Below, in pieces: positions 9,739 through 62,410 of a stretch of DNA of 64,000 nucleotides (positions are counted from its first letter, which is position 1; each line of letters starts with the position of its first letter). The translations under genes were made by a program, and so were the position numbers. The stretch spans positions 9,910-73,909 of the forward strand of contig JAFXJX010000090.1 in NCBI GenBank assembly GCA_017532025.1, in the 5' to 3' direction. The notes below the pieces were generated by a model. It was not told where the DNA came from. It was given only the letters and a program-made list of their open reading frames with translations, and searched no databases. The stretch comes from Clostridia bacterium (lineage in GTDB: Bacteria; Bacillota; Clostridia; Oscillospirales; CAG-272).

Positions 9739-9780
9739 CAGTCTTTTCCCAATCTTCCGCACATCATCATGAATGACCCC

Positions 9781-10055
9781 TACTACGATGTTTCAACTAA
9801 AACTTTACATTTGTCTATACCGCGAGATCCGACGCCAACCTGTAAGCAAGCGACTTGCTTGCAAGTCGAAGCGCCCTGCGCTACGCTTGGGTTTCGACTG
9901 CGTCCGCCCGTGTCATCCTGAGCATTGGAGCTGAAGCTCCCGTCGAACTGCGTAGCAGTGCCGAGCGTAAGCGATGGCAGGATCTCGGGCGGACTTCGCT
10001 CAAGATGACACGCGGCACGAAACTGTGTCAAGTTTTAGTTGAAACACGGTACTAC
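9781..10055. repeat. MITE-like nested-palindrome repeat, copy A
   Basis: Terminal inverted repeat TGTTTCAACTAAAACTT (9789-9805) / AAGTTTTAGTTGAAACA (10030-10046). Internal motifs are CCGCGAGATCC / GGATCTCGGGCGG and GTGTCATCCTGAGC / GCTCAAGATGACAC. Near-identical copies occur at 22412 and 44575. Confidence 0.7.
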
Positions 10056-18533: not shown

Positions 18534-18658
18534 GTAGGGGCGACCCTATGTGGTCGCCCGTCATAAACGATTTTAGCAAAACAAAATTTGATTGAAAAAA
18601 ATCAAATACCATAACGTGTGTTCTATCATTGCGGGCGACCACACAGGGTCGCCCCTAC
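18534..18658. repeat. REP doublet: two GTAG-hairpin units in inverted orientation
   Basis: GTAGGGGCGACCctatgtGGTCGCCCG (18534-18560) and its near reverse complement CGGGCGACCacacagGGTCGCCCCTAC (18632-18658). The spacer holds a TTTGATTgaaaaaaATCAAA palindrome. Confidence 0.65.
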
Positions 18659-18823
18659 TATGATGTAACGTCTAAAACTTGATATAAACCTCTCTCCGCC
18701 TCGCCAAGGCGAGCCACCTCTCCCAAAGGGCGAGGCTTAGCTTTGAAATACTCTCCCTACGGGAGAGTTACCGTGAAGCGCGTGAGAGGGCAAAATAAAG
18801 TTTTAGTTGTTACGGCGCACTAC
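18659..18823. repeat. MITE-like repeat, copy D (family termini, different interior)
   Basis: Termini are GATGTAACGTCTAAAACTT and AAAGTTTTAGTTGTTACGGCGCACTAC. The interior has hairpins CCTCGCCAAGGCGAGG and CTCTCCCTACGGGAGAG instead of the CATCCTGAGC motifs. Confidence 0.55.
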
Positions 18824-22388: not shown

Positions 22389-22647
22389 GGGTTGTCGAGG
22401 GCGCCAACCCCTACTACGCTGTAACAACTAAAACTTTATATAAATAATTTCCGCGAGATCCAAACGGCAAGCCGTTTGCCCTGCGGGTTTCGACTGCGTC
22501 CGCCCGTGTCATCCTGAGTGAAGCGAAGCGAAATCGAACTGCGTAGCAGTGCCAAGCGTAAGCGACGGCAGGATCTCGGGCGGACTCCGCTCAAGATGAC
22601 ACGCGGAGTGAAGTGTATGTAAAGTTTTAGTTGAAACAAGGTGCTAC
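22389..22647. repeat. REP-like hairpin (22389-22414) fused to MITE-like repeat copy B (22412-22647)
   Basis: GGGTTG...CAACCC followed by CTAC, then termini GTAACAACTAAAACTT / AAGTTTTAGTTGAAAC. The interior is nearly identical to copy A from GGGTTTCGACTGCGTCCGCCCGTGTCATCCTGAG onward. Confidence 0.7.
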
Positions 22648-40815: not shown

Positions 40816-41805
40816 ATGACAAATCTTGAACAAAATCAAATGCACTTTATCAATCTGCGCTTTGGCACATTCATTCATTTTAACAGCGCAAGCGTGCAGT
40901 TTCATGCAACCTCCGACGTGGAGGACTGGGAATTTTTCTGCGAAAACGGCGGACATCCCCGTAAGTACCCTTTCAATGAAAAAGATTTTGCGCCTCAAGT
41001 GATCGATACTGACACTTGGGCAGCCATGGCAAAAGCGGCAGGTTGCCGTTTTGCGGCCCTCACCACCAAGCATCACGAGGGCTTCTGTCTATGGCACACC
41101 GATGCCACAGAGCATTCGGTGAAAAACGCCACGGTCACAACTGACGTGGTGGCAAAGTACCTTGAATCCTTCCGTAAAGTCGGCATTGAAGCGGGGCTTT
41201 ACTTCTCGATTCTCGACCTCACCGAAGGCATCAGCCTCAACAAGCCCTTTACCGAAGAAAACGCTCTTTTCATTGAACGGCAAGTCCGAGAGCTTCTCAC
41301 GCGCTACGGCGAGATTCCCTTTTTGATGGTGGACGGATGGAATTCGCCTTGGGGCGGCCCGTCCTTCAAGGATTTCCCTTTCTCGCGCCTTGATAAGCTT
41401 GTAAAAAGCTTACAGCCCAACTGTCTTCTTTTGAACATCGGTTGGCCGCACTCACTTGCCGGCACAGACGTTGCCTTCTATGAAAATGCGGCAGGGCAAG
41501 AGCTTACGGGCGATTTTTCAGGTCCCGGTGTTTCCTGCAACAAGCTGACCGACGCGTGGTTCCACCGCGACGAAGACCGCAAAAAGCCAACCAAAACCGC
41601 CGATTGGGCGGTGGAAAAAGCGCACGCCTATTTCCAAAAAAACGTCAACTTCATGCTGAACATCTCACCCGACGAAAACGGCTGTGTCGATCAGAATCTC
41701 ATCGATACCTTTGAAGAGATCGGCAAGAAGATTGAGTTTCCCGCACCTCTCGAAACCCTCCCCGACGGTTGGTTGAAGAGGGAGATGGGTGACCAAAATG
41801 GATGA
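40816..41805 (+). CDS. GH29 alpha-L-fucosidase, catalytic domain only, no signal peptide
   Basis: RFGTFIHFNS and LTTKHHEGFCLWHT. It starts 10 nt after the upstream stop. Confidence 0.85.
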   Translation: MTNLEQNQMHFINLRFGTFIHFNSASVQFHATSDVEDWEFFCENGGHPRKYPFNEKDFAPQVIDTDTWAAMAKAAGCRFAALTTKHHEGFCLWHTDATEHSVKNATVTTDVVAKYLESFRKVGIEAGLYFSILDLTEGISLNKPFTEENALFIERQVRELLTRYGEIPFLMVDGWNSPWGGPSFKDFPFSRLDKLVKSLQPNCLLLNIGWPHSLAGTDVAFYENAAGQELTGDFSGPGVSCNKLTDAWFHRDEDRKKPTKTADWAVEKAHAYFQKNVNFMLNISPDENGCVDQNLIDTFEEIGKKIEFPAPLETLPDGWLKREMGDQNG

Positions 41806-42307
41806 GAAGAAAGAACTTCCGACACGGAAGCCGACACGGTTGAAAAGTTTTGATTATAGCTCAAACGGTGTATATTTTATAACAATATGTACCCAAAACC
41901 GAAAGAACATTCTTTCTACAATCACCGATGTAGGGGAGGGGTCGCCCCTCCCGCGATTATCGCATTACGGCAAAATCGTAGATAAATGGATTCAAGAATT
42001 ACCAAATCAATATCCGGAAATATCTGTTGACCGTTATGTCATTATGCCAAATCATATACATCTTTTATTGTGCATAGCCAAGGATAGCGGGAGGGGCGAC
42101 CCCTCCCCTACGGTTGATGCGGCAATGGGATGGCTTAAATATCAAGCGACAAAAGAGATAAATAAACTGCGTACTACAACGGGAGAACGAGTTTTTCAGC
42201 GTTCTTTTTACGACCATATTGTCCGTAATTATGATGATTATTGCGAAATAAGCAAATACATCCACGAAAACCCGATGAAATGGTATGATAAACATTTGAA
42301 CACATAA
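41798..42307 (+). CDS. RAYT-type Y1 (HUH) transposase, IS200/IS605 TnpA superfamily (COG1943-like)
   Basis: YFITICTQNRKNIL, the HUH block VIMPNHIHLLL, and FQRSFYDHIVRN...YIHENPMKW. The ATG overlaps the last codons of the fucosidase gene. Confidence 0.8.
   Translation: MDEKKELPTRKPTRLKSFDYSSNGVYFITICTQNRKNILSTITDVGEGSPLPRLSHYGKIVDKWIQELPNQYPEISVDRYVIMPNHIHLLLCIAKDSGRGDPSPTVDAAMGWLKYQATKEINKLRTTTGERVFQRSFYDHIVRNYDDYCEISKYIHENPMKWYDKHLNT
41930..41954 (+). repeat. GTAG-hairpin (REP-like) inside the RAYT ORF, forward copy
   Basis: GTAGGGGAGGGGTCGCCCCTCCCGC has an 8-bp GGGAGGGG/CCCCTCCC stem with a 3-nt loop. It encodes VGEGSPLPR in frame. Confidence 0.85.
42087..42111 (-). repeat. GTAG-hairpin inside the RAYT ORF, inverted copy
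   Basis: GCGGGAGGGGCGACCCCTCCCCTAC is the exact 25-nt reverse complement of 41930-41954. It encodes SGRGDPSPT in frame. Confidence 0.85.
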
Positions 42308-44574: not shown

Positions 44575-44787
44575 TTGTTTCATCTAAAACTTTACATTGG
44601 TCAATTCCGCGAGATCCGACCGTTAAAACGGTCGCCCTGCGCTTCGCTTGGGTTTCGGCTGCACACCGCCCCGTGTCATCCTGAGCGACGCGAAGCAAAG
44701 TCGAGGCGCAGCCGAAGTGGGATCTCGGGCGGTGTTCCGCTCAAGATGACACGCGGGGTGAGATTGCGCCAAGTTACACAGTACCAC
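44575..44787. repeat. MITE-like nested-palindrome repeat, copy C (right terminus degenerate)
   Basis: TGTTTCATCTAAAACTT left terminus, CCGCGAGATCC, GTGTCATCCTGAGCG, GGGATCTCGGGCGG and GCTCAAGATGACACGCGG. The right end AAGTTACACAGTACCAC is eroded. Confidence 0.6.
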
Positions 44788-62169: not shown

Positions 62170-62410
62170 CCTATGTGTCATCCTGAGCGAAGAAAATATC
62201 CCAGTGGGATATTTTCGTAGTCGAACTTTTCAAAATCTGCAACAAATTGCAGATTTTGAAAAGGCAAAACGCAAAGCGTTTTGAGGATCTCCCGCATTAA
62301 GTTTGCTATGCCGCCCGAGATCCCGCTTTCGCCATTTGCGTTGCAAATGAGGCTCAGCGCTGCTACGCAGTTCGACTCTGCTTCGCGCCGCTCAGGATGA
62401 CACGGGCGCC
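62170..62410. repeat. Nested-palindrome repeat, copy E. It shares the CATCCTGAGCG and GAGATCC motifs, lacks the family termini and carries extra hairpins.
   Basis: Outer perfect 15-bp inverted repeat GTGTCATCCTGAGCG (62175-62189) / CGCTCAGGATGACAC (62389-62403). At least four internal hairpins are present, e.g. CTTTTCAAAATCTGCAacaaaTTGCAGATTTTGAAAAG. Confidence 0.6.

Follow-up and report, generated by a model that had tools for sequence, protein, structure and literature searches.

The repeats of this window are very probably gene-less MITEs of the IS630 family, with IS630-type ends, TA-centred targets that are often the feet of REP hairpins, and a nested hairpin cargo of non-IS origin. The window, meaning the whole 64,000-nucleotide stretch of DNA that was analysed, covers positions 9910-73909 of contig C65 in a MAG of 1.99 Mb (108 contigs, 80% complete, 47% GC). 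We assigned the repeats to an IS630-family element because their arms match the TIRs of autonomous elements with a DDE_3 transposase. Four copies had been proposed by the sequence-only reading, and sequences were present at all four sites. Three copies are complete and the fourth is decayed:

9784-10051, no strand: MITE copy A (TAC...GTA, 268 bp), with arms at 9784-9809 and 10026-10051
9780-9783, plus strand: left CTAC flank of copy A, a duplicated target, with CCC before it but no hairpin
10052-10055, plus strand: right CTAC flank of copy A, a direct repeat of 9780-9783
22415-22643, no strand: MITE copy B (229 bp), with CTAC flanks at 22411-22414 and 22644-22647; the orthologous site of the sister species is without copy B
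18659-18819, no strand: MITE with the same arms and a different cargo (GCCACCTCTCCC...GGGAGAG-type module), with CTAC flanks at 18655-18658 and 18820-18823
44575-44787, no strand: decayed MITE copy, with its left arm core at 44577-44592 and its right arm reduced to AAGTT (44771-44775)

The elements are small (149-287 bp), non-coding and multi-copy. The 16-nt terminus AAGTTTTAGTTGAAAC matched the window six times at up to three mismatches, compared with 1.03 expected matches, and none of 100 shuffles reached six. Genome-wide, an nhmmer search with a profile built from full copies recovered the shared interior in 13 complete copies and 4 truncated ones. The copy at 18659-18819, which had been described as carrying the same termini around different cargo, is indeed one further complete element of the genome. 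A profile search also revealed more than 25 free-standing copies of the interior module. The decayed copy has lost its left TAC and flank, together with 11 nt of its right arm; as it is also present at the orthologous site of the sister species, it is old. With these counts, the IS630-type TIRs and the presence or absence of copy B (see below), the original description of a MITE-like family was right.

All four window copies are intergenic, as had been claimed. The accompanying claim that they lie just past stop codons applied to those at 9781, 22412 and 44575, each located between convergent genes, and failed for the copy at 18659, where the left-hand gene, on the minus strand, is 631 nt away and the copy precedes a start codon by 189 nt. 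Near copy A, just after an XRE-like gene (window position 9742), one contig departed from the window sequence in two of the four metagenomes compared, which indicates a strain variant of this intergenic region.

The termini had been delineated as 17 conserved nucleotides. They are conserved, with a real extent of about 30 nt: each element begins (4-mer)-TAC-NNT-GT(T/A)(T/A)CAACTAAAACTTTACA and ends with the inverse, such that TAC-NNT falls outside the 16-mer. These ~30-nt inverted repeats are not self-complementary. The genome-wide search for copies that had been recommended gave ends of this type, TAC...GTA, often with duplicated 4-mers.

An arm 20-mer was used to scan public genomes, one genome per species. 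This yielded ~45 true arms in many gut Clostridia MAGs (ruminant gut), labelled Ruminococcus sp., Oscillospiraceae, Acutalibacteraceae and Eubacteriales, and also in termite-gut Treponema, Synergistaceae and the archaeon Candidatus Bathycorpusculum. In one Oscillospiraceae MAG (L075), the arm GTAGTACTTTGTATCAACTAAAACTTTACAAAA shared 29 of 33 nt with the arms of the window and adjoined, on the other strand, the C-terminus of a DDE_3 transposase (PF13358, 56 bits). The end of this gene encodes ...VMDNLNTH...YTPKHGSWLDIAEIELS...ARVKLKHLYP, within the DDE_3 domain. We confirmed 595 metagenome relatives of the transposase, and an end scan of these relatives delivered 20 complete autonomous elements of 1.21-1.25 kb with the same type of TIR. 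A 21st (L206) came from a MITE-bearing Ruminococcus MAG. The orfB of the autonomous ISs scored 115.9 bits on NF033545, 'IS630 family transposase' (cut-off 100), and orfA is HTH_32/HTH_29.

No DDE_3/IS630 transposase was detected in this assembly (80% complete) or in that of the sister species (73% complete). One was present in 4 of 10 other arm-bearing genomes, including both archaeal MAGs. The window copies would be mobilised in trans, presumably by an IS630 transposase missing from the incomplete assembly. The HTH domain of such an enzyme would bind the ~30-nt ends, and its DDE_3 domain would cut both strands to release the element and join it to an NTAN target centred on TA. The NTAN target would be duplicated in the process, with one copy on each side of the element.

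Among 41 relatives, the MITE family itself turned up in just two genomes, this one and that of a sister species within the genus. In other genomes, the arms enclosed at least six unrelated cargos of 68 to ~500 bp. One subfamily, with the cargo AAAAGCAAATGGCAGAGGACTTAAATGAAAC..., was nearly identical in MAGs labelled Ruminococcus, Acutalibacteraceae, Clostridia, Candidatus Fimenecus and Bacteroidales (loci L062, L068, L078, L080, L081, L087, L100, L112, L116 and L120). Near-identity across such differently labelled MAGs points to recent horizontal spread. Termite-gut archaeal MAGs (L089, L096 and L109, Candidatus Bathycorpusculum; G048 and G049) carried 91-bp MITEs with the same arms, as well as pseudogenised relatives of the IS630 transposase. 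These archaeal occurrences suggest either cross-domain spread of the element or mis-binning.

A duplicated target is a hallmark of DDE transposition, and CTAG is the classical target of IS630 elements. We compared the 4-mers just outside TAC...GTA in 31 MITEs and in 21 autonomous ISs. Of the 31 MITEs, 19 had exact direct repeats as flanks, where random re-pairing of ends predicted 7.6 and none of 20,000 re-pairings reached 19. Among autonomous ISs, exact direct repeats flanked 16 of 21 (11.6 expected, P = 0.002). MITE flank pairs included CTAC/CTAC and GTAG/GTAG, as well as the informative pairs TTAG/TTAG, CTAA/CTAA, CTAT/CTAT and GTAC/GTAC. Flanks of the autonomous ISs were mostly CTAG...CTAG, and the central TA of flanks was near-invariant. 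In three window copies, the left flank and the right end had been noted to share a same-strand CTAC, and this was read as the geometry of Y1 transposition. The observation stands, but the interpretation does not: same-strand CTAC...CTAC is a direct duplication of an NTAN target, the geometry of DDE cut-and-paste.

The length of this duplication may depart from precedent. IS630-family elements insert at TA, which is duplicated (PMC2170065). Like ISY100 and other IS630 elements of the Tc1/mariner/IS630 superfamily (PMC2170065), the autonomous relatives encode an HTH + DDE_3 transposase and have an invariant central TA and CTAG...CTAG flanks. They differ in having two ORFs (orfA HTH, orfB DDE) and in their 4-nt direct repeats at non-palindromic targets, which classical TA-only duplication does not predict. 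Such repeats (TTAG, CTAA, CTAT and GTAG) were observed at L078, L116, L094, L096, L109, L128, L129 and L164, with outer bases that differ from the TA-only prediction. This IS630 clade may make a 4-nt staggered cut. Inverse-complement flanks were found in six MITE copies, namely C11, C22 and C64 of this genome, L045 of the sister species, and L113 and L061 of other MAGs. They read CTAC...GTAG in L061 and GTAG...CTAC in the other five. C11, C22, C64 and L045 are largely one young subfamily, and the left arm of C22 is mixed. The GTAG...CTAC cases can be read as a 2-nt TA duplication within GTAC by counting the terminal G/C as part of the element, an arrangement that the 4-nt direct-repeat cases do not fit.

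The genome carries typical GTAG-hairpin REPs, often as inverted doublets ~83 bp apart. Two window copies adjoin such hairpins:

22389-22414, plus strand: REP hairpin GGGTTGTCGAGGGCGCCAACCC with CTAC foot (22411-22414), into which copy B inserted; the repeat of this CTAC is at 22644-22647
18534-18658, no strand: REP doublet (REPIN-like), GTAG-GGGCGACC..GGTCGCCC ... GGGCGACC..GGTCGCCC-CTAC, whose right foot is the target of the copy at 18659

The window flanks owe their CTAC to the REP-hairpin foot, itself CTAC, into which the element inserted. Hairpin feet represent 111 of the 7,349 CTAC sites in the genome, and 5 of 14 complete copies stand on such feet (8 of 14 when degenerate feet are included). 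The CTAC/GTAG foot of REP hairpins would be the preferred target in this lineage. A preference of this kind would account for copies that read hairpin-CTAC/TAC...GTA/CTAC, slashes marking the junctions. The hairpin-CTAC/TAC junction was also seen in several other MAGs. The junction between REP and MITE always fell exactly at the boundary between foot and TAC, in at least five different hairpin families. REP-foot junctions in C5, C48, C65, C68, C69, C76 and C85 of this genome, and in L039 and L040 of the sister species, all read hairpin-CTAC/MITE on the plus strand of the contig. MITE/GTAG-hairpin was never seen at those junctions, and REPs overall occur on both strands (22 vs 24). This one-strandedness may be chance or bias, the contigs being unoriented.

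Comparison with the sister species established the order of events at one site. At the copy B locus, the sister species has REP-CTAC/aaatcatcgcaatttc once, and this genome has REP-CTAC/MITE/CTAC/caatcctcgcaatttc. Since the sister species has the REP without the MITE, the REP preceded the MITE there. Empty sites in relatives had been predicted for the family in general. When the flanks of 16 copies were searched against 10 genomes of the genus, copy B gave the only clean REP-foot empty site. Two copies are common to the sister species and this genome. For the C68 and C81 sites, the right side alone matched in genomes of the genus; most intergenic flanks in these genomes were rearranged, or contigs ended at the element. 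No empty allele of copy A was found among contigs of four gut metagenomes: the element was present, contigs broke inside it, and no joint skipped it.

The enzyme originally proposed to move the repeats is encoded within the window, and the genome contains further paralogs:

41789-42307, plus strand: RAYT-like Y1 gene, 172 aa, TnpA-REP subclass 2.4, with an in-frame GTAG-hairpin at ~41931-41955 and hairpin-CTAC at ~42090-42112
Other RAYT paralogs of this assembly (G000): C43:53508-54059, C73:17627-18181, C72:4261-4848 and C90:27315-27755

The gene at 41789 scored 68 bits on NF047646, below the cut-off of 80, and 25.9 on Pfam Y1_Tnp, above the cut-off of 23. Its protein contains the motifs PNHIHLL, FQRSFYDH and YIHENP. 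Enzymes of TnpA-REP subclass 2.4 (RAYT group 4) have NH[IFV]H and YIxNNP-like motifs and carry REPs in frame within the gene; they are associated with double-foot REPs (PMC6006769). Gene 41789 has both the motifs and the in-frame hairpins around the HUH motif that define this subclass. It is a RAYT and not an IS200/IS605-type TnpA, and its hairpins are unlike the arms of the element; its proposed role as an IS200/IS605-type mobiliser is not supported. In each of the five RAYT paralogs in the genome, the HUH motif is bracketed in frame by GTAG-hairpin ... hairpin-CTAC as an inverted pair, and none of these hairpins (GTAG-GGGAGGGG.., GTAG-GGGCGACC.. and similar) resembles the arms. The hairpin pair of the C72 paralog is the main REP family of the genome, and free doublets of this family look like deletion derivatives of the C72 gene segment. 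RAYT homologues occurred in 16 of the 41 relatives and the MITE in only 2. A RAYT was thus rejected as the mobiliser, with no sequence link to the five paralogs and their hairpins and a poor match in distribution across the 41 relatives.

These data bear on whether the repeats could be non-autonomous elements of IS200/IS605 or REPIN type. Such elements would move as ssDNA with the help of a Y1 (HUH) enzyme, for instance the RAYT at 41789; they would integrate 3' of CTAC and have CTAC as their last four bases. The same-strand CTAC of three window copies would follow from such a mechanism. Copies also adjoin GTAG/CTAC-footed REPs in a genome that encodes five RAYT paralogs, and at the C64 site the MITE here and a REPIN in the sister species fill the same GTAG...CTAC frame. 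We nevertheless regard Y1 transposition as very improbable. In addition to the unlike gene hairpins and the mismatched distribution (16 relatives vs 2), the ends are 30-nt inverted repeats common to IS630-family elements and not subterminal hairpins. The flanking 4-mers vary between copies (TTAG, CTAA, CTAT, GTAC, CTAG) and are directly repeated, with no fixed tetranucleotide, and the interior is found in both orientations relative to the REP side.

The C64 site is not explained by simple insertion. Here, a MITE (G000 C64:20921-21128) corresponds to a REPIN doublet of another hairpin type in the sister species (G001 C25:1-165, L030), while the flanks and the outer GTAG and CTAC are identical in both. 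In two further copies (C9 and L047), a hairpin lies between the arm and CTAC. The C64 coincidence and these hairpins inside CTAC leave room for a secondary action of RAYT on the GTAG-stem-like ends. Under such a model, the GTAG-TAC.../...GTA-CTAC ends of an IS630 MITE would mimic a 'double-foot' REP, and putative cutting and rejoining by RAYT would install REP hairpins or swap cassettes, with no homing of the MITE to pre-existing REP feet. This is consistent with the invariant position of the REP-MITE junction across hairpin families and with the linkage of subclass 2.4 to double-foot REPs (PMC6006769). As an account that dispenses with homing it is nonetheless unlikely. At the copy B locus, the REP predates the MITE, the sister species having the one without the other. 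Likewise, a CTAT foot with a CTAT repeat (L094), and GTAG/GTAG around autonomous ISs beside REPs (L128 and L129), are more simply read as duplication of a foot. Insertion of IS630-family MITEs into TA-centred targets remains our preferred reading of the shell. The cargo and its module U are located as follows:

9820-10015, minus strand: cargo of copy A, an inverted-U-like shell from CCGCG.AGATCC to GCTCAAGATGACA.CGCGG; minus is the G.T-wobble strand
9902-9994, minus strand: inner module U within the shell of copy A, with closing stem GTCCGCCCG/CGGGCGGAC
62309-62406, plus strand: stand-alone module U with no MITE arms, from the profile search

The cargo is not IS-derived. Read on the G.T-wobble strand, the interior consists of four segments: CCGCG.TGTCATCTTGAGC; CCGCCCG.AGATCC; GCTCAGGATGACA.CGGGCGG; and GGATCT.CGCGG. 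The middle two bound a hairpin module, U, and the outer two terminate an oppositely oriented U-like unit. Insertion of the GC-rich module U (CCGCCCG.AGATCC ... GCTCAGGATGACA.CGGGCGG) into an inverted U-like unit, at its apical GCGAAG region, would have produced this arrangement. An un-nested counterpart exists: apart from one 85-95-nt insertion equal to U, the window copies align over their whole length with 130-bp elements of MAG RGIG4012.

The interior had been described as crossed internal palindromes in pseudoknot topology. Crossing order was confirmed for the complementary boxes CCGCGAGATCC/GGATCTCGGGCGG and CCGCCCGTGTCATCCTGAGC/GCTCAAGATGACACGCGG, while the pseudoknot itself did not hold up. 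An asymmetric element nested in its own reverse complement orders the boxes q' p q p', and they therefore cross without any selected pseudoknot. Covariation was examined in a haplotype table of 30 copies. The stems closing U and the shell each showed four to five fully compensated haplotype classes (e.g. CTGCCCG/CGGGCAG, GTCCCGCCCG/CGGGCGGGAC, CCCTGCG/CGCAGGG and TTTACG/CGTAAA). The crossing boxes showed no compensated change in the 30 copies; in one variant their pairing is broken and the local ATTC/GAAT pair is preserved. Folding as a single strand, which had been put forward as a check, returned the nested form as the MFE structure and not a pseudoknot.

A selected pseudoknotted RNA or ssDNA in which both crossing helices are used (a ribozyme, sRNA or recombination site) might still be imagined, given that the 13-nt and 7-nt boxes are nearly invariant in the 30 copies and that in 24 of them the 13-nt pair retains a G.T wobble when read on one strand (C.A on the other). 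We consider it highly unlikely. The crossing order is automatic from nested insertion, the un-nested form exists, and the crossing helices lack compensatory change and are broken in variants. Rfam gave no match for the whole window at gathering thresholds or for copy A at E <= 1. The full U signature was found in 2 of 301 genomes of the class and is confined to this lineage; a minimal version occurs as cargo in one other MAG (L110). A full-text literature search for the box sequences returned unrelated primer matches only. We also considered GTCATCCTGAGC...GGATCTC as a cross-phylum motif, which is unsupported for the full U signature at 2 of 301 class genomes.

Outside the MITEs, stand-alone U (CCGCCCGAGATCC...GCTCAGGATGACACGGGCGG) was observed at window 62309-62406, at G000 C3:6977, C78:9259 and C104:15884, and at more than 20 other sites. 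A hairpin-GGATCTAC(G/A)A unit, which reads as a GTAG-footed REP on the opposite strand, usually precedes it by ~15 nt, and U itself holds variable small hairpins in a BIME-like mosaic grammar. Within U, a 22-nt palindrome, CTTTTGGGG-NNNN-CCCCAAAAG, is present in some copies and missing at the same position from near-identical others (seen around copies C48, C85 and C76 of G000, and L040 and L036 of G001). It looks like a further level of hairpin-into-loop insertion. A second repeat family, with boxes GCCACCTC(C/T)C...GGGAG(A/G)GGC, was observed at window 18680-18795, at G000 C81:43330-43560 and at ~10 other sites. This family supplies the cargo of the 18659 copy, and its members are scattered through this genome and genus.

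Of known systems, RUP with IS630-Spn1 is the closest (Oggioni & Claverys 1999, reviewed in PMC2229807); there, the TIRs of RUP match those of an IS630-family IS. Like RUP as portrayed there, the present elements are small and non-coding, have IS630-matching TIRs, TA-containing targets and many intergenic copies, and are thought to be moved in trans (PMC2229807). Unlike RUP, they have arms of 30 nt, compared with the 9 contiguous bp reported in that review (PMC2229807). They also differ in their GC-rich REP-like cargo, nested two deep, in a preference for REP feet rather than IS elements, in flanking repeats that are mostly 4-nt and not 2-nt, and in having no cognate IS in this assembly. REPINs and BIMEs with RAYT (PMC3116915, PMC3333891, PMC8266576, PMC6006769) are likewise intergenic and palindromic with GTAG/CTAC boundaries. 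The elements here have sites in common with genuine REP doublets, and the host has subclass 2.4 RAYTs with in-frame REPs. However, their arms are those of a DDE element and not GTAG-hairpins, and their flank tags are variable and duplicated. Correia/NEMIS elements of Neisseria (PMC2229807) are similar as ~100-150 bp MITEs with 24-26-nt TIRs, terminal TA and size variants arising through internal inserts. Their sequences and hosts are unrelated, and for the present elements the type of the parent IS can be named.

In kind, then, the element is ordinary. What is unusual is its homing to REP feet, its capture of REP-like cargo and its apparent 4-nt duplication. The single-strand Y1 and knot explanations give way to target duplication at a REP foot and a module nested in its own inverse. 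A parent IS type can now be named for a MITE shell spread over many ruminant and termite gut microbes with differing cargos. For annotation, the MITEs and module U break assemblies and cause spurious ORFs in gut MAGs. More tentatively, we propose that in gut Clostridia and termite-gut archaea one clade of IS630-family elements, along with its MITEs, might home specifically to GTAG/CTAC REP feet and duplicate NTAN instead of TA. The hairpin-forming MITE shells could serve as landing pads for REP-like modules, and RAYT may exchange cassettes at the shared feet, for instance at C64. If this is true, two kinds of selfish DNA would build each other's nests.
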